Assembly: GCA_045593905.1 (NCBI GenBank)
Contig: JAZNXL010000015.1
Span: 4,572-68,571, forward strand
Reading direction: 5' to 3'
Origin: Eubacteriales bacterium
GTDB taxonomy: Bacteria; Bacillota; Clostridia; Oscillospirales; QAKW01
Length of the DNA: 64,000 nt
Shown here piece by piece: positions 67 to 53,633 of the stretch. Under the pieces are notes generated by a model. It did no database searches. It was not told the origin of the DNA and was given only the letters and a program-made list of their open reading frames with translations. Position 1 is the stretch's first letter. Every line of letters begins with the position of its first letter. Made by a program: the position numbers and the translations under genes.

Positions 67-666
67 ATGAAAAAAACAATTACATTATTAATGATTTTAA
101 CTGTTGTAATAACTTCTTCTTGCAGTACATCCATTAAACAAAAAAATGATAAAGTAGAGTTGAATACAACATATGTGAGTAGCGAGGCATTAAACTACTA
201 TGCAGCTAATAATTATGAGCAATTATTTGAGGTTGCTGATTACGTTGTTGTAGCAACACCGCAACAAAACATTGAAGAGAGTGAACAATTTTGGTATGTG
301 AACGGAACGCAGTCTGTTGAAAACTTTGACCAAGCTGATTTGATTTACAGTTTTAGTAAACGTGACTTTAAAGTACAAAAAGTTTTTAAAGGAGAAAATA
401 AAGACTTAAAAGAAATTTCAGTTTGTGAATATGCAATAACAGATGGTGCTCAGATTAAAATTTTTGATGGCGAGTATATTGCTGAAAAAAACCATAAATA
501 TTTATTGTTTTTGATTGAGTCAAAAGTAACTAAAGGCTTGTATTTCACAACATTTTATCAAGGAAAATATGATTTAAAAGAAAAAAATAACGAGGAAAAC
601 AAAAATATTAATAAAGAACTATACAAAGAAATAAAAGAATATTACAAATCTAATTTTACTAATTAA
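67..666 (+). CDS. putative lipoprotein, function unknown
   Basis: ORF preceded by an AAGGGGGG RBS. N-terminal signal peptide ends in the lipobox-like ITSSC. No catalytic motif recognised. Confidence 0.6.
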   Translation: MKKTITLLMILTVVITSSCSTSIKQKNDKVELNTTYVSSEALNYYAANNYEQLFEVADYVVVATPQQNIEESEQFWYVNGTQSVENFDQADLIYSFSKRDFKVQKVFKGENKDLKEISVCEYAITDGAQIKIFDGEYIAEKNHKYLLFLIESKVTKGLYFTTFYQGKYDLKEKNNEENKNINKELYKEIKEYYKSNFTN

Positions 667-730
667 CCCTCGTACTGAATAAAGTGCCTCTCCTTAAAAA
701 CATCGCACTTTATTCGTTTTATAAAAAATA

Positions 731-758
731 TCCCACTCGCAAGAGTGGGATGTTTTTT
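731..758. terminator. bidirectional intrinsic terminator between the lipoprotein gene and mfd
   Basis: Stem tcccactc / gagtggga with gcaa loop, flanked by an A-run upstream and tgtttttt downstream. Confidence 0.75.
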
Positions 759-3700
759 ATTGTAAGTTTTGTAAAAACTCTTCCATGCGCTCTATTACCG
801 TCTTGCCGTTTGGGCGTATGGTAACGTACGGCTTTTCACCGGGGGTAAACATCATACCCGAGCCGTAAATTGCCTGCAAGCGAATAAGCAGGTTTTCGTC
901 AACACTGTTAAAGAAAAATACAATGTTATCGGCGCGTTGCTTAATGTCAAAAATATTAAGGCTGCGCGCCATATTGCGTATAAGTGAAATACGCATAAGG
1001 TTTATAACGCTCTCGGGCGGAGCTTTAAACCTGTCGGTAAGCTCGTCGAGAGTATCTAAAAAACCATCGTGGTTTTTAATAGCGGCAATTTTTTTATAAA
1101 CGTCAATTCGGGTGCGCTCGCTCGTAATATACGTTTTTGGAATAAACGCGCTTACCGAAATATCAATGGTACAGTCCGACTTTGTTTCGGGCTCAAGACC
1201 TTGCTCGGTCAAAATTACGTTTTTGAGTATCTCCATATAGGTATCGTACCCGACAACGCTCATATTACCGTGCTGACGCTCGCCCAGAAGCGAGCCTGCG
1301 CCACGAATTTCGAGGTCGCGCATTGCAATTTTAAGACCTGCGCCAAACTCGGTAAACTCTTTAATGGTAACAAGGCGCTTTGTTGCAATTTCGCTGGGGT
1401 TTTTGTCCTTTTTATAGGTAAGGTACGCATACGCCCTGCGGCTGCTTCTGCCAACACGGCCGCGAATTTGATGCAGCTGCGCAAGTCCCATTCTATCGGC
1501 ATCTTCAATAATAAGTGTGTTTGCAAACGAAACGTCAATACCCGTTTCAATAATGGTGGTGCAAAGTAAAATATCCACCTCGTGACTCAGCACGGCTTCC
1601 CAGGCTTTTTCAATCTCGGCAGCGCTCATTTTACCGTGCGCCGTCATAATACGCGCCTCTGGGATAGCAATACTTAAGCGTGTTGCAATACTGTCGAGCG
1701 CCTCAATATCGTTTTTAAGATAAAAAACGCATCCATTACGACGCATTTCGCGTGTAATTGCCTGGGTTACAATATCAAAATTATACTCAAGCACATAAGT
1801 CATAACAGGCAACCTGTCAAGCGGTGCTTCTTCAATAATTGAAATATCGCGTATGCCCGACATTGCCATATTAAGAGTACGCGGAATAGGTGTTGCGCTC
1901 ATTGAAAGCACGTCGACACCGAGAGCTAGCTCTTTTATTTTTTCTTTGTGCTTAACGCCAAAGCGTTGCTCCTCGTCAACAATGAGCAGTCCGAGGTCTA
2001 AAAACTTAACGTCTTTTTGCAAAAGCCTGTGAGTGCCAATAACAATGTCAATCTCGCCGCTCTCAAGCTCTTTACAAATTTGCGATTGCTGTTTTTTTGT
2101 CTTAAACCGAGAGAGCGATGCAACCTTAACAGGAAAGCCTTTAAAACGCTTTGCAACGGTGTTAAAGTGTTGCTCGGCAAGTATTGTGGTCGGCACTAAA
2201 ATTGCAACCTGCTTTGAGTCCATAACCGCCTTAAACGCGGCACGCAGTGCCACCTCGGTTTTACCAACACCAACGTCACCGCAAAGCAACCTATCCATAG
2301 GATACGGCTTTTCCATATCCGCCTTTATCTCGCGTGCGCAAGCAATCTGGTCTTCGGTTTCTTCGTATTCAAAGCGTTGCTCAAACTCGTTTTGCCAATC
2401 GGTATCGGCAGAAAATGCAAAGCCTTTTGCACTAAGGCGCTTTGCGTAAAGCTCAATAAGCTCGCGCGCCAAAACCTCAGATTCTTTTTTTACCTTGCTC
2501 TTTGCCTTTTCCCAGGCCGATGTACCAAGGCGGGTAAGCTTTACCTTTGAGGTATCTGCACCAATGTATTTTGAAATAAGGTCAAGCTGAGGGCAGGGGA
2601 CATAAAGCGTGTCGCCCTTATCGTAGCCAATAACAATATAGTCTTTTGTAACACCGCCCACCGTCATTTGCTTAATGCCGTTATATATGCCGATGCCGTG
2701 GGCGTTGTGAACAACAAGGTCGCCTATTTCAATATCGTCAAAGCTCTTTATTTTTTCGCCCGCCTGCTTTTTAGCGCGTTTAACCGACGGCTTTTTCTTT
2801 GCCGCAACATCGCTTAAAAGTACAAGCTTTGCGTTTTCAAACACAAGGTTTAGCGCAATATCGCTAACAGTTACAGTAACGTTTTTAGTACTGACACCCG
2901 CTTCGTCAAGCGCCTCTTTTACAACCTTTGCGCGCTCGGTTGTTGATGCGGTAATAACACAGCTGTAGCCGCCCTTAACATAGTCTGCAACTGTGAGCGC
3001 ACTTTCTTTTCCTATAAATTCACTTACCGATTGCGATAAAATGTTGGCATCGGTCAGTGCCGAAAGCTTTTGTGATGCAGTTGGCTTTAGCGCCGAAAAC
3101 AAATAGGTATCTTTTACAAAATGAGTCAGCAACTCGTCATAGCTTAAATAGTAACTGCCGTTTGCAATAAAGGTGCCGTGCAGGGCGCACTGCTCTACGT
3201 TTTGGTTAAACTGCCACTCTAAAAATTCGCATCTTGACTTAATTTGCGACTGCTCTAACACAAACACGAGCGGGTTGTCGACGTAGTCAAAAATCGTGAA
3301 AATTTTGGGGTAAATAAGCGGTATATATTTATCAATCGCAACACGCATACCGCTGTTTAATGCCTCAATATCTTTTTCAATATCGTGGTGCGGTTTTTGT
3401 GCTTTTAATATATCTAAAAGCTCGGTATCGCTCACATACGGGCTTTTATTAAGCGGTGTAATTTTTACCTGTTCGCATTGTTCGGTGCGGCGTTGTGATA
3501 TAACGTCAAAATAGCTTATGCGTTCTATATCGGTATCAAAAAACTCAATTCGAACAGGCGCATCGCTACCGCCGACAAACACGTCAACAATATCGCCCCT
3601 GCGTGAAAACGAGCCTGCGCCTTCGACCATATCAAACATAGAATATCCCATTTTGATAAGGCTGTCGCAAAGCGCATCAAGCGAGGTACTGTCGCCCGCT

Positions 3701-44195: not shown

Positions 44196-44265
44196 GTCTT
44201 TTTTAGTCCTTTGCGTGATTATTTAACCCAAAATGCGTAAAAACTATCTAAAAAGGACTGATAAA

Positions 44266-45435
44266 ATGAAAAAAATCGTTGCAATTTTACTTGCGCTTTC
44301 GTTTTGCTTTGGAATTATTATTGGCTTTGCACCGAGCGAATACTCTTTTTTTAGCACCGATGCAATAACAAGTAATAACTTTTTATACAAACTCGATATA
44401 GGCTCAACGCAAACTCTTTCGACCGGTAAAACACTGCCGCAGGGTAAGTATAGCGCAAAGGTTAAGCTTTTTGGACTTTTGCCAATAAAAACCGCGCGCA
44501 TAACTGTGCTTGAGCAAACAAAACTGTCGCCGCTCGGTGTACCGTTTGGACTAAAACTGTATACCGACGGTGTTATAGTTGTTGATATTACCGACTTTGT
44601 TGCAAACGGGAAGGTGTGCAACCCCGCCCATGATGCAGGCATACGAGAGGGCGATATAATAGTGACCTATAACGGAGTAAAAATAAAGTCAAACGAACAA
44701 CTTATTGCCGAGGTTAAAAAGTTTGACGGCACACCCCAGCAGGCACTTGTCCGCCGTAACAATCTTGAGTTTACCGCCTTTGTAACACCTGTTGCCGATG
44801 ATAGCGACGGCGTTTACAGAATAGGACTTTGGGTGCGCGACAGCACCGCAGGCATTGGTATGCTCACTTTTTATAACGAGCGTAATAACACACTTGTTGG
44901 CCTTGGGCACTCGGTGTCAGATAGCGATACAGGTCAGCTTATGCCTGTGTCAACAGGCGAGCTTGTTCTTGCCGATATTAAAGGCGTTGTAAAAGGAAAA
45001 GTCGGCGCGGCAGGTGAGCTTGCAGGCGCGTTTATAGAAGGTCAGACAATTGGTATTTTAACAAATAACAAGGAATCAGGACTGTCGGCTATTTGTACCA
45101 CCGAAATATTTAAAAACAAAAACAAATTCAATATCGCGCTTAAAAAAGATATTAAAACAGGTGTGGCGCAAATAATATGCTGTGTTGACGGCACAACCCC
45201 AAAAACCTACGATATAAAAATTACAAAAATTAATAATAACCTAAGCGAAACCAAAAATATGATAATCGAGATTACCGACAAAGACCTGCTTAAAAAAACA
45301 GGCGGAATTGTAAGAGGAATGAGCGGGTCGCCTATTATTCAAAACGGCAAACTAATCGGTGCCGTAACCCACGTCCTCGTCGACGACCCCACAAAAGGCT
45401 ACGGCATCTTTATTGAAAATATGATAACAGAATAA
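44266..45435 (+). CDS. spoIVB: stage IV sporulation protein B (S55 signalling peptidase with PDZ domain)
   Basis: TM/signal segment and a PDZ-like segment (AGIREGDIIVTYNG). S55 core GIGMLTF, LGHSV, GMSGSPIIQNGKLIGAVTHV. Start set at MKKIVAIL; ATG 44233 is an alternative. Confidence 0.9.
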   Translation: MKKIVAILLALSFCFGIIIGFAPSEYSFFSTDAITSNNFLYKLDIGSTQTLSTGKTLPQGKYSAKVKLFGLLPIKTARITVLEQTKLSPLGVPFGLKLYTDGVIVVDITDFVANGKVCNPAHDAGIREGDIIVTYNGVKIKSNEQLIAEVKKFDGTPQQALVRRNNLEFTAFVTPVADDSDGVYRIGLWVRDSTAGIGMLTFYNERNNTLVGLGHSVSDSDTGQLMPVSTGELVLADIKGVVKGKVGAAGELAGAFIEGQTIGILTNNKESGLSAICTTEIFKNKNKFNIALKKDIKTGVAQIICCVDGTTPKTYDIKITKINNNLSETKNMIIEITDKDLLKKTGGIVRGMSGSPIIQNGKLIGAVTHVLVDDPTKGYGIFIENMITE

Positions 45436-48678: not shown

Positions 48679-48687
48679 TTTATATGT

Positions 48688-48714
48688 AAAAAGCACCCTT
48701 CGGGGTGCTTTTTA
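48688..48714. terminator. bidirectional terminator (right end of the GH28 gene, end of the kinase operon)
   Basis: Stem gcaccc-ttcg-gggtgc with flanking A and T runs. Confidence 0.8.
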
Positions 48715-49416
48715 TATACTTTTTTTGAGTTGTAATGCAGTTTGATACCTGTTGTCCGGGTTTATGCTTGTACACTTGGAAACAATTCTTCCAAGATGAC
48801 CGTCGGCAATTTTTTCGGTAGGGTGCTTTCCTGTTAATAACACATTCAGTAATACGCCTGCGGCATAAATATCAGTTCGTTCGTCGCTCTCTTTAAGTCC
48901 TAACTGTTCAGGGGGAGCGTAGCCAACGGTACCCATTACCTCGGTGTCGTGACTTTTTTGTGAAATTCTGCGTGCGGCACTAAAATCAATTAACACTATA
49001 CGTCCGTTTTTATCTACCATAACGTTTTCAGGCTTAATGTCGCGATGTACTATACCGTTTTGATGTAATACCTGCATTGCATTACAAAGCTGACGTAAAA
49101 TTTTTTTAACGCCGTTTTTGCGGTATTTACCTGTTTGCGCAACCTCGGCAACTGTTAAGCCGTTAATGTATTCTTCTAAAACAATAACTCCGTCACTACA
49201 GTTGTAAATATCATAAACTGCAGGAAGGTTTACGCACCTTCCGTTACAAAGAGTTTGATATACATCGTTTTGCTTTTTTAGTATGCGCAAAACGTAGTCC
49301 TGCTCGTTTTTGCGGTGCCTTACACGAAATACTCTATTCTCGTTTCTGTCTGAAAGAAGAGATACTTTTATAAAAAAATCCCAAAGCAGTTGTAGTTGTT
49401 GCTCGCAAGTGTTCAT
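48712..49416 (-). CDS. stand-alone Ser/Thr protein kinase domain (atypical)
   Basis: HRDIKPENVMV catalytic loop, DFS (instead of DFG), GTVGYAPPE. No GxGxxG loop recognisable, and no TM or sensor domain. ATG 49416 follows a GAGGAG RBS and forms ATGA with the upstream stop. Confidence 0.8.
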   Translation of the reverse strand: MNTCEQQLQLLWDFFIKVSLLSDRNENRVFRVRHRKNEQDYVLRILKKQNDVYQTLCNGRCVNLPAVYDIYNCSDGVIVLEEYINGLTVAEVAQTGKYRKNGVKKILRQLCNAMQVLHQNGIVHRDIKPENVMVDKNGRIVLIDFSAARRISQKSHDTEVMGTVGYAPPEQLGLKESDERTDIYAAGVLLNVLLTGKHPTEKIADGHLGRIVSKCTSINPDNRYQTALQLKKSI

Positions 49417-50471
49417 CCGTTCCACTCCTCATACACCGCATCATAGTAGCTACTTGCAATATTGCGATAATAACGAAAATCACGGTTGTTACAGTTATAT
49501 GAACAATGAATAGTAAGTGCTGCGTTTCTTTTTTCTTTGGACGCAAACGCCTGTATATCAACGTGTATTGAATTTGCGCCTAAATATATATCGGTTAAGT
49601 TAACGCAGCCTGAAAAAGCAAATTCCCAAACCGTTCTTACCGTTTCGGGAAGATAAACCTGTTTTACGGTTGTTTTAACATTTTCACCATTAAAAGCTGA
49701 ACGCTGAATAGCAATTACTTTTTTTCCGTCTATTGTTGACGGTACACGGTATATGCCGTCAGCGGCGGGGGTTGAAACGCCTGTAATTACAACGCAATTA
49801 TCCACATTCGAGGTTACAAGGTAATCGTCAATAGCGTACTCGGCATCTCTATAGGTGTAAACTGCAGTAGTTGTAACAGGGGTGTCTTGCTGCTCTTGTT
49901 TAGGGGTGTCTTGTTGTTCTTGATTGGGGGTATCTTGCTGTTCCTGATTAGGAGTATCTTGTTGTTGCTGATTAGGAGTATCTTGTTGTTCTTGATTGGG
50001 AGTATCTTGTTGGTCAGGAGAGACTTTGACAGGTTTTTCAGGGTCGGTTTGCGGTGTGGTAACTGTGGTATCCGGCACAGTTGTATTTGGACCGCCTACA
50101 TAAATTTCTGAACCACCGTCAGATTTATTTTGCTTATTATTCGAGTTTGGTGTTTTATTATTTTGGTTGGCATTATTGCCGTTTGATTGTTGTGACTCTG
50201 AATTTGAATCAGTATTTTTTGTTGTATCTTCAACGTTTGTTTGTTGTTGGTCAGGTTGTTTTGGCGGCTTTACAGTTTGTTTAGGCAAAAAAATAAGCGC
50301 TGTAATGCCTATAACACAAGCAAAAACGGCACAACAAATAATCAGTACCAATCGCCGTGGGCGATTAAGCGCTGCAATTAATTGTGCCTTAGGCTCAAGC
50401 TCTTTCATGCAATATAAGCATACTCGCGCATTTTCTTCAATTGTAGCATTACAATAGGGGCAGTTTTTCAT
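49413..50471 (-). CDS. zinc-ribbon / TM / Q-P-T-rich linker / BspA-type leucine-rich-repeat protein
   Basis: N-terminal CPYC...CLYC, one TM segment, a low-complexity linker with QQDTPNQE repeats, and a C-terminal LRR-like segment (IQRSAFNG...LPETVRTVWEFAFSGCVNLTDIYLGANSIHVDIQAFA). Confidence 0.65.
   Translation of the reverse strand: MKNCPYCNATIEENARVCLYCMKELEPKAQLIAALNRPRRLVLIICCAVFACVIGITALIFLPKQTVKPPKQPDQQQTNVEDTTKNTDSNSESQQSNGNNANQNNKTPNSNNKQNKSDGGSEIYVGGPNTTVPDTTVTTPQTDPEKPVKVSPDQQDTPNQEQQDTPNQQQQDTPNQEQQDTPNQEQQDTPKQEQQDTPVTTTAVYTYRDAEYAIDDYLVTSNVDNCVVITGVSTPAADGIYRVPSTIDGKKVIAIQRSAFNGENVKTTVKQVYLPETVRTVWEFAFSGCVNLTDIYLGANSIHVDIQAFASKEKRNAALTIHCSYNCNNRDFRYYRNIASSYYDAVYEEWNG
49881..50018. 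repeat. 24-nt tandem repeat, about 5.75 copies, in-frame (QQDTPNQE)n
   Basis: Units ggtgtcttgytgytcttgwttrgg read directly from the sequence. They lie inside the linker of the ZnR-LRR gene. Confidence 0.9.
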
Positions 50472-50890
50472 CCTAACGTTTCCAAATCGTAATCAAATAA
50501 TAATTCGTTTATTTCTATTACAGATAGCTTTTTACAAATACCAAACAACACTATGCTGTCAAACGGGAGCTTAACATAAAGGGTAGGGTAGCCTGCGCAT
50601 TTTAAAAGTGTTTGCACCTCATCTAAAGAGAGTTCCATTCCAATTGCAAGGCATAATAGCTTATTTCGTTCAGGCACACGGATACCCGAAAAAATCTGAT
50701 AAGCATAAACCTCTGAAAGCTCGGCTTTTTTAATAACCTCAGACTTTTTTAAGCCCTTTTGCTCAAGTAATGATGCAAGCATCTGCGAAAGCGTGCTGGT
50801 TACCATATAATCTTTGTTTTCGTTGTAAAAAGTTTGAAAACTCGGGCATAACCCCAATTCTTCAACTATTTTAGAAGTGTCTTTTTTCAT
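50468..50890 (-). CDS. XRE-like HTH-domain protein (140 aa)
   Basis: HTH-like core KKSEVIKKAELSEVYAYQIFSGIRVPERNKLL. Start set at MKKDTSK (ATG 50890). Its stop overlaps the downstream start (ATGA). Confidence 0.6.
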   Translation of the reverse strand: MKKDTSKIVEELGLCPSFQTFYNENKDYMVTSTLSQMLASLLEQKGLKKSEVIKKAELSEVYAYQIFSGIRVPERNKLLCLAIGMELSLDEVQTLLKCAGYPTLYVKLPFDSIVLFGICKKLSVIEINELLFDYDLETLG

Positions 50891-50914
50891 AAACCCACAC
50901 ATCCTTAAACATCT

Positions 50915-50968
50915 TATGCTTTTAGCATAACATAATCGACAAATTTTTTCAACTATGCTGTCAGCATA
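50915..50968. promoter_or_regulatory. two 15-bp palindromic operator candidates, TATGCT-N3-AGCATA
   Basis: Palindromes at 50915-50929 and 50954-50968 have identical half-sites, with centres 39 bp apart. They bracket or overlap the promoter below. Confidence 0.6.
50924..50952 (-). promoter_or_regulatory. candidate promoter of the HTH-LRR-kinase operon
   Basis: On the minus strand: TTGAAA, 17 nt, TATGCT. The -10 hexamer is itself a half-site of the proximal palindrome. Confidence 0.45.
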
Positions 50969-51015
50969 GGACATTATTAAACTGCCGATTTATAATATTT
51001 AAAGGATGAGGGGTT

Positions 51016-51276
51016 TTATATACGTTCTACATCCTGTGCAGAAAGTATTTGGGAAATTGGAACTTCCAAGCTTTTTGAAAAGATTATTAAATCAATGTCG
51101 GTTACAAACCTTTCACCGTTTTCAACCCGACGAATAAAGTAATGGTCTACGTCAAATCCCAATAATTGCATTTTTTCTGCCAGCTTCCGCTGGGATAGCT
51201 TTTTGCTTTTGCGTATTTGCATTATACGCTTTCCGCAAAGGTTGTTGGTGCCGTCTGCGGCTTTAATCTTAAACAT
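51016..51276 (-). CDS. XRE-family HTH transcriptional regulator (86 aa)
   Basis: LSQRKLAEKMQLLGFDVDHYFIRRVENGER HTH_3-type motif. GAGGGA RBS 6 nt upstream of the ATG. Confidence 0.85.
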   Translation of the reverse strand: MFKIKAADGTNNLCGKRIMQIRKSKKLSQRKLAEKMQLLGFDVDHYFIRRVENGERFVTDIDLIIFSKSLEVPISQILSAQDVERI

Positions 51277-51291
51277 AACAAATCCCTCATT

Positions 51292-51366
51292 TTTGTTGAA
51301 TACTATTTACTTTTTTATTATTGTATGATAAAATACAATATATTTTGGTGAATAGTATTCAACAAA
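51292..51366. promoter_or_regulatory. perfect 16-bp inverted repeat pair flanking the divergent promoter region
   Basis: tttgttgaatactatt (51292-51307) and aatagtattcaacaaa (51351-51366), 43 nt apart. The interval contains a TGaTAAAAT extended -10 (51326-51334). Confidence 0.55.
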
Positions 51367-51431
51367 ATAAGGGGTTTTATTTATACCCAAAAAATATTTG
51401 CAGCCGAAAAATCGGCAGAAAGAGGTTTATT

Positions 51432-51935
51432 ATGGGATTTATGGAGAAATTGGGTGCAACACTCGCAACAAAATACGGTGAGGTTACCGAAGGCAGACAC
51501 GAGGGCTGTGTTGTTGCTTTGGGCAATCCGCCAGATAAAAAGGTTAGTGCTACCAACAAGTTTACTCAAATTATATTCCTTGAAGACAAAGAAACAAAGG
51601 GTAGATACGATATTGGTTCACAGGCTAAAGCATTACACTTTGTTGAAAGCGACCACGACAGCGTGACAGTAGTTATTGATTTTGCTGACGGCGATAGCTC
51701 TACAATAGTTCTTAGCACACCAAAAGAAGACAGTGGCGTTGTATCGCTTATTAAGGGTCAGCTCGGTTTAAAATCGGCAACCAAGGTGAATAAAGACGGT
51801 ACTACTCAAACTGATAACGATGTTAAGTATCATAATATAAAAACCTTCTTGTTAACATTTGTTCATAACTATGCAGGAGATGATGCTATAAAGGTTCGTG
51901 ATTATTTAGATAGCATCGGTTTGTTAAAAAAATAA
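51432..51935 (+). CDS. hypothetical protein (167 aa), no family recognised
   Basis: ATG 51432 lies 6 nt after the AGAAAGAGG RBS; the track ORF from 51321 has no RBS. Predicted soluble. Confidence 0.6.
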   Translation: MGFMEKLGATLATKYGEVTEGRHEGCVVALGNPPDKKVSATNKFTQIIFLEDKETKGRYDIGSQAKALHFVESDHDSVTVVIDFADGDSSTIVLSTPKEDSGVVSLIKGQLGLKSATKVNKDGTTQTDNDVKYHNIKTFLLTFVHNYAGDDAIKVRDYLDSIGLLKK

Positions 51936-51956
51936 TTAACGAAAGGACATAAAGCA

Positions 51957-52502
51957 ATGGAGCTTATTAACAACGAAGCAAAATGGTTTTTGTCAGAACA
52001 AGGCAAAAAAGCATTTGACAACTGTAAAAATCTCGAGGAACGTTCGGTATTTATTTATTCGTATTTAAAAAAGATTTCGGTAAACTCTTTAAATAAAGAT
52101 TCTTTTTTGTTCAGAATTGCGTTTTTGTTAGCAAACTCTGTTCACTCATCAAAGGCTGAATATGCTAACTATCCCGAACTTCTTGACGAAAGTAAAAACC
52201 CTTTTGTTGCTTATGTTAAAAATGCAAAAAAGGTTTATTCAATTCAAATTAATTACTGTATTCTTTTATCAATCTTACATAAAATAGCTAATCCTTTTAA
52301 TACAGATGACTGGGTATATAATCAAGCGTTTGTTGAATCAAAGGCGTATATTGACAAAGCAAAGGAACTTGAAAAATGTTTTATTGAAGATACCAAAGCT
52401 CGTGTGATTGACAATAGTGTTTATGATATTGATGAGGCTTTGCGTGATATTCAAATTGAAATCGCCTGGCTTTTTATTCTTCAAGATAAGGAGGATAAAT
52501 AA
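51957..52502 (+). CDS. hypothetical protein (181 aa), probably all-alpha, no family recognised
   Basis: AAAGGAC RBS. AT-rich coding sequence. The stop directly abuts the next start. Confidence 0.6.
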   Translation: MELINNEAKWFLSEQGKKAFDNCKNLEERSVFIYSYLKKISVNSLNKDSFLFRIAFLLANSVHSSKAEYANYPELLDESKNPFVAYVKNAKKVYSIQINYCILLSILHKIANPFNTDDWVYNQAFVESKAYIDKAKELEKCFIEDTKARVIDNSVYDIDEALRDIQIEIAWLFILQDKEDK

Positions 52503-53591
52503 ATGAACGATAACAAAGAGTTAATTGGTCAGTTAGAGCAACTTGACCAGCTTATCGACGAGAATGAAAATTTAAACTTTTATATTGAGCACGGTGCAGC
52601 AAGAGAAGCTCTTGAACAAATTGCAGTTATTCGCGAAAAACGCGGACAGGCTCCAAAAGCGCCCTCTGTTTACACCACAATGCCGGTTTATCCGTTAAAC
52701 GAAAGCGTGTATTTACCGCTCGAAAAATCATATAATCTTGCTAAAAAAATATTTTTTGGTGCTTTGGGCGTAACAGTTCTTATGGCTATTATATATATGA
52801 TTAGTAAAGCTGATTTTTTCAATACACTTTCCACAATTGGAATTATGGGCTCAATTGTTTCGGGTATCTATCACTCTAAAATAAAAGGTCAATATAAAGA
52901 CAAAAAGAAAACATATGACGAGTCTGTTAAAACCTTTGAAAGAACTATGGGTGCTTTTCGTAAAGGACTTGCAAACCTTGACCAAGAAAAGCAAACTGCT
53001 TTAGACGAACTAAATGCATATAAACAATTAAACGCTGTTTGTTATGAAGAATATACAGTTGCTTTTAACCAGTATTCTGACAACATTGATAACGCAAAAG
53101 CTATATATGCTGTTAATTCGGACCAAATTAACAGCAGTGAGGTTTTACCAGTTGATTACCATCATCTTGTTAAACCCATAATTTCAATTTTAAAAAGTGG
53201 TAGAGCGGACACATATAAAGAAGCTCTTAACTTAGCAATTGACGAGGAACGTCAAGAAAGAGAAGCTGCAGCTCGCCGTGAGGCAGAGGCTCGCCGCCAA
53301 GCCGAAGAAGAGCGCCGTACCGAAATTATGAGACGTCAGGCAGAAGAAGAACGCCGTCATAACGAGCAAATGGAGCGTCAACAGGCTGAACAGGCAAGAG
53401 AAGCTGCCCGTCAACAACAAGCAGCACAACGCCAACAGGCAGAGCAGGCAAGAGAGGCTGCGCGTCAACAAAGTCGTCAAGAAAGTATAGGCAGAAGTAA
53501 GTGTCATAGTTGTGCCAATTACAGCCATTGCCCATCTCATGTAAAAAAGAGTGGTGCAGGACTTACTTGCGGTGGCTATAGACCAAGATAA
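52503..53591 (+). CDS. hypothetical membrane protein with coiled-coil, E/R/Q-rich repeat and Cys/His-rich tail (362 aa)
   Basis: Two TM helices (about residues 82-125). Duplicated RQQAEQAREAARQQ. C-terminal CHSCANYSHCPSH...CGGY. Confidence 0.65.
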   Translation: MNDNKELIGQLEQLDQLIDENENLNFYIEHGAAREALEQIAVIREKRGQAPKAPSVYTTMPVYPLNESVYLPLEKSYNLAKKIFFGALGVTVLMAIIYMISKADFFNTLSTIGIMGSIVSGIYHSKIKGQYKDKKKTYDESVKTFERTMGAFRKGLANLDQEKQTALDELNAYKQLNAVCYEEYTVAFNQYSDNIDNAKAIYAVNSDQINSSEVLPVDYHHLVKPIISILKSGRADTYKEALNLAIDEERQEREAAARREAEARRQAEEERRTEIMRRQAEEERRHNEQMERQQAEQAREAARQQQAAQRQQAEQAREAARQQSRQESIGRSKCHSCANYSHCPSHVKKSGAGLTCGGYRPR

Positions 53592-53602
53592 CCGTATAAC
53601 AA

Positions 53603-53633
53603 AAAGAACGCAATTTTATTGCGTTCTTTTTTT
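53603..53633 (+). terminator. intrinsic terminator ending the orphan operon
   Basis: Stem gaacgcaat / attgcgttc followed by ttttttt. Confidence 0.8.

Follow-up and report, generated by a model that had tools for sequence, protein, structure and literature searches.

A conserved operon of gut Clostridia predicted to encode a receptor kinase in two polypeptides and a putative XRE-fold autorepressor

Introduction

Can a membrane receptor kinase consist of two polypeptides, a membrane-spanning sensor and a soluble catalytic domain that joins it? This question is raised by three minus-strand genes in the 64,000-nucleotide stretch of DNA analyzed here, called the window (Eubacteriales bacterium, Oscillospirales; assembly GCA_045593905.1, contig JAZNXL010000015.1, positions 4,572 to 68,571 of the forward strand). 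The three open reading frames (ORFs) lie head to tail and encode, in order, a 140-amino-acid (aa) helix-turn-helix protein (HTH140), a membrane protein with a zinc ribbon, one transmembrane (TM) segment and a leucine-rich repeat domain (LRR_5), and a bare Hanks-type kinase. An earlier reading made from the letters of the window (the sequence-only reading) had suggested a split receptor kinase, with the HTH protein as its output or autoregulator. We put the probability at about one half that the operon is a self-contained transmembrane signaling cassette in which receptor and kinase are separate polypeptides, that is, a noncovalent receptor kinase that would control a dedicated autorepressor.

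To our knowledge, what is known of Hanks kinases in Firmicutes comes almost entirely from PASTA kinases. We searched the literature for an XRE/Hanks-kinase/zinc-ribbon system and for a pairing of HTH140 with kinases, and found no description of either; the cassette of gut Clostridia is conserved but uncharacterized. Systematically wired to non-PASTA membrane kinases, the HTH140 family represents an uncharted signaling family, and the window offers a natural experiment in which the sensor and the catalytic subunit of a receptor kinase would be separate chains.

The three genes form one conserved operon

The genes constitute one tightly coupled operon, with a sigma-70-like promoter under two 15-bp palindromes at its head and a terminator at its end (Table 1). 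The junction letters, read directly as ...TTAGGATGAAAAAC... and ...AACGGATGAACACT..., make both gene junctions ATGA stop/start overlaps (50468-50471 and 49413-49416), as the sequence-only reading had described, and GAGGAG precedes the start codon of the kinase gene. The true start of HTH140 is the ATG at 50890, the upper limit that had been assigned to the gene from the beginning, as judged from more than 100 homolog clusters that are 140 aa long and begin with MKKDT. A longer, 168-aa HTH ORF (50468-50974) would extend across the promoter and operators. The promoter, upstream of 50890 on the minus strand, comprises TTGAAA (50952-50947), a spacer of 17 nucleotides (nt) and a TG-extended TATGCT (50929-50924).

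Table 1. Features of the HTH140/membrane protein/kinase operon and its surroundings (window coordinates)
Feature	Position	Strand	Description
Intrinsic terminator	48683-48718	both	16-bp stem (GCACCC-TTCG-GGGTGC core) plus T run; closes the operon, shared with the convergent GH28-like gene
Kinase gene	48712-49416	(-)	234 aa; bare atypical Hanks-type Ser/Thr kinase
Kinase Arg44	49285-49287	(-)	at the VAIK Lys position; codon-checked
Kinase Gln54		(-)	at the alpha-C Glu position
Kinase HRD Asp126	49039-49041	(-)	codon-checked
Kinase Asn131		(-)	catalytic-loop Asn
Kinase DFS Asp144	48985-48987	(-)	codon-checked
Kinase Thr158, Thr163, Glu170		(-)	activation-loop Thr, GT Thr and PPE Glu
Middle gene	49413-50471	(-)	352 aa; zinc-ribbon/single-TM/repeat-linker/LRR_5 membrane protein
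Zinc ribbon	50409-50462	(-)	CxxC-N10-CxxC, residues 4-21, Cys 4/7/18/21; predicted cytoplasmic
TM helix	50286-50351	(-)	single, predicted by hydropathy scan; residues 41-62
Linker repeat	49878-50012	(-)	24-nt tandem repeat, 5.6 copies, NQEQQDTP linker; TRF score 172
LRR_5 domain	49416-49859	(-)	BspA-type, predicted extracytoplasmic; ~residues 205-352
HTH140 gene	50468-50890	(-)	140 aa; XRE-like
HTH140 parts	50468-50890	(-)	flexible N-tail, residues 1-30; HTH core, ~31-97; two further C-terminal helices
HTH140 Thr5	50876-50878	(-)	invariant, in the N-terminal tail
Proximal palindrome	50915-50929		operator-like, TATGCT-N3-AGCATA; contains the -10 hexamer TATGCT
Distal palindrome	50954-50968		operator-like, TATGCT-N3-AGCATA; abuts the -35 hexamer TTGAAA
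Optional upstream gene	51016-51276	(-)	86-aa HTH_3 (XRE) protein, same island; Pfam HTH_3 23.9 bits

A pattern scan for HTH140, covering one genome per species, found the protein encoded in at least 186 species genomes; the best 80 of these 186 are Acutalibacteraceae, Oscillospiraceae or "Clostridia" metagenome-assembled genomes (MAGs) from the guts of ruminants and other animals. The gene order HTH, zinc-ribbon-TM protein, 233-aa kinase was present in all 67 loci with enough sequence for analysis (at least 67 species). Across these loci the gap between the HTH stop codon and the middle gene is -4 to +9 nt, that between the middle gene and the kinase gene is mostly -4 or +4 nt, and the TM segment lies at about residues 37-60 of the middle protein. 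The triad is a conserved unit in many Oscillospirales gut species, far from chance, and the possibility raised with the sequence-only reading, that the genes do not co-occur elsewhere, is set aside by this survey. There is one copy of the cassette per genome, its flanks differ from one genome to the next (dnaK operon, SpoIVB or HAD hydrolases), and every carrier of the split form is an uncultured MAG.

Kinases without a membrane anchor are paired with a zinc-ribbon membrane protein

HTH140 belongs to a large family. A profile search of 399 sampled Clostridia genomes found matches in 124, with full-length homologs of 140-170 aa in about 45 genomes, and the whole representative library holds 623 family clusters (50% identity) at E <=1e-30 and 2723 at E <=1e-10. 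A related Hanks kinase adjoins HTH140 in 38 of the 46 flanked loci; about 29 of these pairs are divergent, eight are co-directional (often overlapping) and one is a fusion. The neighboring kinases are 327-685 aa long and have one to five predicted C-terminal TM segments. Among these are two kinase-TM-LRR_4/LRR_8 proteins (537 and 543 aa), and thousands of homologs with the kinase-TM-LRR_4 architecture of ~535 aa occur in Clostridia, Chloroflexi and other phyla. Two cultured species were checked, Acetanaerobacterium elongatum and Longilinea arvoryzae; in both, the gene of such a fused kinase has an HTH140 homolog (E ~1e-46) abutting it.

Full-length kinases lacking a TM segment were seen in the window clade and in two other arrangements only, always with a zinc-ribbon-TM gene in the operon. 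In one of these arrangements (L141), the kinase gene is followed by the zinc-ribbon-TM gene, and a divergent HTH gene is followed by that of a secreted LRR_5 protein; in the other (L182), the order is zinc-ribbon-TM-LRR_5, HTH, kinase. In a maximum-likelihood tree, the bare kinases fall into a single clade (support 94/91), which is nested within the TM-anchored kinases. Zinc-ribbon-TM ORFs are rare in the background, with about five in the 1.68-Mb genome, and they also occur within 5 kb of about nine TM-anchored kinases of the family. As far as the sequences tell, the pairing of kinase and zinc-ribbon-TM protein outlasted at least three rearrangements of the operon and a sequence divergence of 36-41%; the simplest history would be one loss of the membrane anchor in cis together with recruitment of the zinc-ribbon-TM partner.

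Taken together, the complementarity of bare kinase and zinc-ribbon-TM protein and the existence of fused kinase-TM-LRR proteins are the best evidence, comparative in kind, that points to a noncovalent receptor kinase. The cassette would then be the counterpart, in two polypeptides, of a widespread LRR receptor kinase that is made in one piece and paired with a repressor of the same family. The split receptor kinase of the sequence-only reading gains support from the pairing in three gene orders and from the one-piece proteins, but it does not hold as a literal cleavage of the fused form: because LRR types and domain order differ between the split and fused forms, the split form is not a literal gene fission.

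HTH140 is also found joined directly to other domains. Two natural fusions with a kinase-like domain were identified, a 407-aa protein (L133; G090:C175, 1300-2523 (-)) and a 381-aa protein (P0348), whose kinase-like domain is degenerate, with HMD for HRD and DFN or DYS for DFG; TAL was also noted (DFN-TAL). Fusions of a macro domain, an ADP-ribose-binding or hydrolase fold, with the HTH140 core (residues 28-140) are common in Clostridia (E 1e-12 to 1e-18 against the HTH140 profile), examples being proteins of ~340 aa in three genomes (L146-L148; G320, G139, G349). These macro fusions, a weaker tier of matches to the profile, suggest that different sensor domains use the core as a portable output domain. 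A genome from a different taxonomic order has, at one locus (L143; G235:C23, 4025-7027), two tandem HTH140 paralogs ahead of a 233-aa kinase and a zinc-ribbon-TM protein whose ectodomain is DUF6273, and single proteins with a tandem double HTH140 (287-324 aa) exist as well.

The kinase retains the catalytic loop and has a noncanonical ATP site

The 234-aa protein matches Pfam Pkinase (PF00069) with 121.9 bits (cut-off, 31.7; E 4e-35) and carries the Hanks catalytic motifs HRDIKPEN, D144 (as DFS) and PPE. Its AlphaFold2 model (predicted local distance difference test [pLDDT] 88.6; predicted template-modeling score 0.85) has a bilobal kinase fold with strand beta-3 at residues 40-46, a disordered activation loop and no helix G. 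The best solved relative by sequence is PknB of Mycobacterium tuberculosis, from residue 58 onward only, and PknB is also the top Foldseek match of the model (E 8.5e-16; template-modeling score relative to the query [TMq] 0.78). We looked for a GxGxxG motif, a TM segment and a PASTA domain in the protein and found none; the Gly-loop position reads SDRNEN, and the VAIK Lys and the alpha-C Glu are both replaced. The sequence and the alignment thus bear out what the sequence-only reading had seen, namely a catalytic domain without TM segment or PASTA domain that has HRDIKPEN, DFS for DFG, PPE and no Gly-rich loop. That reading had overlooked the Arg at the VAIK Lys position, the Gln at the alpha-C Glu position and the deletion of ~24 residues after helix F, where helix G would be.

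We aligned 120 homologs of the kinase against the PrkC of the same genome. HRDxKPEN, the DFx Asp, G-T, xPE, the helix-F Asp and the subdomain-XI Arg are invariant or nearly so, and in a set of 66 kinase sequences D126, N131, D144, T158, G162, E170, D182 and R223 are invariant. At the VAIK position, Arg is found in 89 of the 120 homologs, His in 31 and Lys in none. The Gly loop has the consensus L-S-[ED]-K-N-x-C-[KRQ]-V, with a Lys in this degenerate loop in 115/120, and the alpha-C Glu is kept in 103/120. In the window kinase and its nearest relatives, the alpha-C Glu is lost (Gln or Leu) and an Arg takes the place of the Gly-loop Lys.

Judged by sequence and model, the protein has a genuine kinase fold of the RD type, with an apparently intact catalytic loop and a predicted noncanonical ATP site. 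Under the usual sequence definition, the loss of at least one of VAIK-Lys, HRD-Asp and DFG-Asp, it is a predicted pseudokinase because the VAIK Lys is absent, though HRD Asp and DFx Asp are retained; that the catalytic residues are so strictly conserved speaks for some remaining chemistry. The TM-anchored sister kinases tentatively keep the beta-3 Lys; this assignment is tentative because the alignment of the divergent N-lobe by hidden Markov model is unreliable over the wide kinase family (PrkC was misaligned). A kinase that has every catalytic-loop residue and no beta-3 Lys is a clean case for the study of Lys-less ATP binding, with the zinc-ribbon tail as a potential activating subunit. The only other Hanks kinase in the genome is the canonical 680-aa PrkC, with an intact GxGxxG/VAVK site (G000:C71 [L002], 91-2870 (-)); a PP2C phosphatase gene lies immediately upstream of it.

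The middle protein combines an invariant zinc-ribbon tail with a variable ectodomain

The two CxxC knuckles place the N terminus of the middle protein among the zinc ribbons (PF13240/PF12773). Zn_Ribbon_1 matches 51 of the 67 orthologs, and the window protein itself is below threshold with 17 bits. In all 67 orthologs the motif CP[FK]CxAxIxExARFCLYC occurs at residues 3-8, and C4, P5, C7, C18, C21, M22 and K28 are invariant. The sequence RPRR ahead of the TM span predicts an N-in, C-out topology. The predicted extracytoplasmic part gives a subthreshold LRR_5 (PF13306) hit at residues 251-313 in the window protein (E 1e-05; 25.9 bits, just under the cut-off of 27.7), and LRR_5 matches 51/67 orthologs (best E 2.8e-62). 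This ectodomain is the fastest-evolving part of the cassette, ranging from 187 to 555 aa and containing DUF6273 or other domains in some members. The architecture proposed at the outset, a CxxC-CxxC ribbon, one TM segment, a repetitive linker and an LRR domain, was thus recovered in each of its parts, with four invariant Cys, a hydrophobic span, a tandem repeat and LRR_5 matches in most orthologs. Identity as a zinc-binding anti-sigma factor (ZAS) was considered and dropped because the Cys motif is CxxC-N10-CxxC, not HxxxCxxC, and the operon contains no sigma factor gene.

HTH140 is a predicted XRE-fold protein with operator-like palindromes at its own promoter

HTH140 is the most conserved of the three proteins, with 75-83% identity over more than 100 clusters compared with 50-62% for the kinase. 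Its Pfam scores are below threshold (HTH_31, 17.1 bits with a cut-off of 27; HTH_3, 13.6 bits with a cut-off of 23), and the sole match of its profile to sequences in the Protein Data Bank is 3op9, a weak XRE hit (E 0.025). The AlphaFold2 model has a pLDDT of 88 overall, above 93 at residues 31-140 and 57-65 at residues 1-30. The modeled core is a five-helix XRE fold that Foldseek superposes on the N-terminal domain of DdrO, C.Esp1396I, SinR and 434 Cro over ~65 residues (template-modeling score relative to the target 0.7-0.8; root-mean-square deviation 1.7-2.5 Å), with E values of only ~0.02; the two extra C-terminal helices gave no Foldseek match. On the strength of this model, we regard HTH140 as a predicted XRE-fold protein. 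In the N-terminal tail, Thr5 is one of six invariant columns among 41 HTH140 sequences of 25-81% identity; it lies in the motif K-x-T-x-E-L-L and is also retained in the kinase-like fusions.

The 15-bp palindrome (<=2 mismatches, <=160 nt upstream of the HTH gene) was found in 79 of 81 loci. The additional 86-aa HTH_3 gene lies directly upstream in 32/81 related loci, and since the palindrome is present in 47 of the 49 loci without that gene, it goes with HTH140 and not with the 86-aa protein. The 1.68-Mb genome contains two exact copies, both at this promoter, where 0.17 would be expected by chance; therefore, no further regulon is visible. A regulon search of the whole genome returned ten one-mismatch sites, about the chance level, and did not identify output genes. 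Upstream of distant HTH140 homologs the palindrome is not shared, apart from a similar 6-N3-6 site, TTAGCT-N3-AGCTAA, at the same distance from one 40%-identical relative. The layout is that of an autorepressor and supports HTH140 as a putative autorepressor, in line with the autoregulatory role that had been proposed for it.

A proposed mechanism and its alternatives

We propose that the LRR_5 ectodomain, which evolves fast and is sometimes swapped for other domains, binds an external ligand, and that the signal would cross the TM helix to the invariant 35-residue zinc-ribbon tail. This tail may recruit or activate the soluble minimal kinase at the membrane and would stand in for the TM or TM-LRR segments present in cis at the C terminus of sister kinases. 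The kinase would then modify or sequester HTH140, most likely by phosphorylation of Thr5 in the disordered N-tail. HTH140, probably as a dimer on each palindrome, would repress its own promoter, and signaling would change this repression, with HTH140 being either released from the twin operators or tightened on them. A bolder version, which we think somewhat unlikely, is that the cassette exemplifies a widespread, hitherto undescribed bacterial LRR-receptor/Ser-Thr-kinase/dedicated-repressor pathway, built as one polypeptide or as a noncovalent pair. In that pathway the zinc-ribbon tail would switch on a Lys-less minimal kinase, which would bind ATP in a noncanonical way with a beta-3 Arg or His and phosphorylate Thr5 of the XRE repressor, in parallel to plant receptor-like proteins with cytoplasmic kinases or to animal TLR-IRAK signaling. 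The cassette is tractable, with small parts, a defined operator and a fused version in cultured species.

Several observations weigh against this proposal. The VAIK Lys, in none of the 120 homologs, and the Gly loop are gone, and the window sub-lineage also lacks the alpha-C Glu and the Gly-loop Lys; given these losses at the ATP site, the kinase may transfer no phosphate. Thr5, although invariant, stands at the start of a helix and could be a structural cap, not a phosphosite. The zinc-ribbon motif reads as a generic Zn_Ribbon_1/DZR consensus, not obviously as a dedicated docking surface, and the TM calls rest on a simple hydropathy scan. Since the exact operator is found at the cassette's own promoter only, no regulon, and hence no output, is visible. 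Finally, most pairs in the wider family are divergent, which also fits HTH140 as a mere local repressor of the kinase gene.

The main rival takes up the first of these points. In it, the kinase fold binds nucleotide or nothing and transfers no phosphate, and it serves as an adaptor that tethers HTH140 at the membrane via the zinc-ribbon protein or releases it, by anti-sigma-type sequestration or partner switching, so that the signal would change the amount of free repressor at the operator. The Arg or His at the VAIK position in 120/120 homologs, the missing Gly loop, the loss of the alpha-C Glu in the window sub-lineage and the deletion of helix G all speak for such an adaptor, and a change of the beta-3 Lys to Arg marks described bacterial pseudokinase families (PMC12599244). 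So do the natural kinase-like/HTH140 fusions: with their motifs degraded (HMD, DYS/DFN-TAL), the kinase fold there clearly serves a noncatalytic regulatory role. However, HRD-Asp, Lys128, Asn131, DFx-Asp, GT, xPE, the RD Arg and the activation-loop Asp-Thr are strictly kept over deep divergence, which is unusual for a purely structural protein; 115 of 120 family members have a Lys in the degenerate Gly loop; and the Lys-less kinases WNK and POMK are active (PMC12599244). We consider an adaptor of this kind unlikely.

The other rivals are weaker. The three proteins might be coregulated and not assembled, with HTH140 a local autorepressor, the kinase acting on other targets, and the LRR protein an adhesin or other surface protein. 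BspA-type LRR proteins are commonly surface adhesins, and in L141 the LRR_5 protein is secreted and its gene shares a transcription unit with that of the HTH protein rather than that of the kinase. The exact operator at this promoter alone and the divergent pairs of the wider family, the classic layout of a local regulator, would also fit. Yet translational coupling is kept in 67/67 loci, bare kinases never occur without a zinc-ribbon-TM gene while sister kinases have the TM segment in cis, fused kinase-TM-LRR proteins adjoin HTH140, and kinase-HTH140 fusions exist, so that we hold simple coregulation to be quite improbable. Improbable to a higher degree is a toxin-antitoxin or anti-phage (abortive infection) cassette with the logic of HipBA, Stk2 or PD-T4-6, in which an XRE antitoxin or repressor would lead the operon, a growth-arresting kinase would end it and the surface LRR protein would be the trigger sensor. 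An XRE repressor and palindromic operators upstream of a kinase in a tightly coupled operon would suit it, as would the patchy distribution (5/41 relatives) and the absence of the 4.95-kb island from a congener in which the flanks are 77 nt apart. The kinase models of PADLOC (PD-T4-6, mad6 and Stk2) match with E values of 1e-23 to 1e-35, but they do so through the generic kinase core only, and neither the HTH protein nor the membrane proteins match a defense model. For the known anti-phage kinase systems (PD-T4-6, Stk2, MADS and BREX PglW), we looked for a full-length match together with the partner genes and found neither; the NCBIfam scores are 96 versus 460 bits for MAD6 and 50 versus 990 for PglW. 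Pfam and NCBIfam scans found no HipA-type domain, HTH140 is conserved at 75-83%, unlike typical antitoxins, the cassette is single-copy with no integrase or known defense genes nearby, and its relatives are ordinary membrane receptor kinases.

Comparison with known systems

With the PASTA kinases PknB, PrkC and StkP, the predicted noncovalent receptor kinase shares the kinase fold, PknB being the best match in sequence and structure, and the coupling of a cytoplasmic kinase to an extracytoplasmic sensor via one TM helix. It differs in that the kinase has neither PASTA domains nor its own TM segment and is missing helix G, the Gly loop and the VAIK Lys, that the sensor is a separate zinc-ribbon/TM/LRR_5 protein, and that the operon also codes for a dedicated XRE repressor. 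The PASTA-kinase model (NCBIfam NF033483, Stk1/PknB) matches in the kinase core only, with 132 bits against a cut-off of 450.

The fused kinase-TM-LRR_4 proteins of ~535 aa are closer in genetic context. The same HTH140 family is encoded immediately upstream, abutting or overlapping the kinase start; the kinases belong to the same HTH140-linked family, on a deeper and separate branch; and an LRR ectodomain follows one TM segment. They are, however, single polypeptides without a zinc ribbon, with LRR_4/LRR_8 C-terminal to the kinase, whereas the split form has LRR_5 on a protein with an N-terminal zinc ribbon. Their Pkinase match reaches further into the N-lobe (from profile positions 13-19 onward), and they are themselves uncharacterized.

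In mycobacteria, PknH-EmbR and PknK-VirS are cases in which a Hanks kinase gene is linked to that of a DNA-binding regulator thought to be under its control. The linkage of kinase and regulator genes is the same here, but it involves a small XRE-fold regulator in place of an FHA/SARP or AraC protein, an FHA domain is absent, and the operator lies on the regulator's own promoter. HipBA and HipBST have an XRE-type first gene, palindromic promoter operators and a kinase gene in last place, with a three-gene variant. Our operon resembles them in each of these respects, including the number of three genes, and departs from them in its Hanks-type rather than HipA-type kinase, its membrane LRR middle protein and its highly conserved HTH protein. 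Clostridium difficile CD2148 was considered as a homolog of interest and rejected, as it is monocistronic, TM-anchored and without the catalytic Asp and Asn.

Among described kinases, the class that comes closest is that of bacterial beta-3-Arg (pseudo)kinase families such as DYD, which shares some defining features with the window kinase, not all. DYD and other beta-3-Arg families of Firmicutes were described in an atlas of bacterial Ser/Thr kinases from the Kannan laboratory; DYD members have a beta-3 Arg, lack the alpha-C Glu, read DYD for DFG and are membrane associated (bioRxiv 10.1101/2025.01.12.632604; PMC12599244). The window kinase is like them in its origin from Firmicutes, its beta-3 Arg, the loss of the alpha-C Glu, the retained catalytic loop and the altered third residue of DFG, and sister kinases in our tree have DFD and a TM segment. 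It is unlike them in reading DFS or DFN, in the alpha-C Glu kept by 103/120 relatives and in the lack of an anchor in cis; this comparison is one of individual features. The atlas papers mention no HTH or zinc-ribbon partners (bioRxiv 10.1101/2025.01.12.632604; PMC12599244).

The cassette lies on an accessory island

In this genus the cassette is accessory, the short kinase being present in only 5 of 41 relatives. In the window it is part of a 4.95-kb, seven-gene island (48688-53633) that comprises the triad, the 86-aa HTH_3 gene and a divergent three-gene operon. A congener without the island (L190; G001:C156, 2090-2200) has the flanking GH28-like and AIM24 genes (72% and 82% identical, respectively) 77 nt apart, with a terminator hairpin between them; therefore, the whole island behaves as one indel. 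No flanking repeats were seen in a comparison of the island with this empty site. As an accessory island of Oscillospirales that are abundant in the gut and uncultured, the cassette may report on a host- or community-derived surface ligand.

All seven genes of the island were scanned against PADLOC, PHROGs and NCBIfam, which returned only generic kinase-core and generic XRE matches, with zero matches for HTH140 and the three orphan genes. These three, which form the divergent operon (51321-53591 (+)), encode proteins of 204, 181 and 362 aa, for which Pfam, NCBIfam and PADLOC gave no match and PHROGs no useful one. Parts of the operon adjoin the triad in about 19 of 80 related loci, with 26-66% identity, and we regard this three-gene membrane operon as a candidate output of the cassette. 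A gene for a SpoIVB-type peptidase S55 lies a few kb from the triad in the window (44233-45435 (+)), and another is found directly downstream of the kinase gene in an unrelated MAG (L031, 8517-9623); this shared neighborhood may be remnant synteny or chance.

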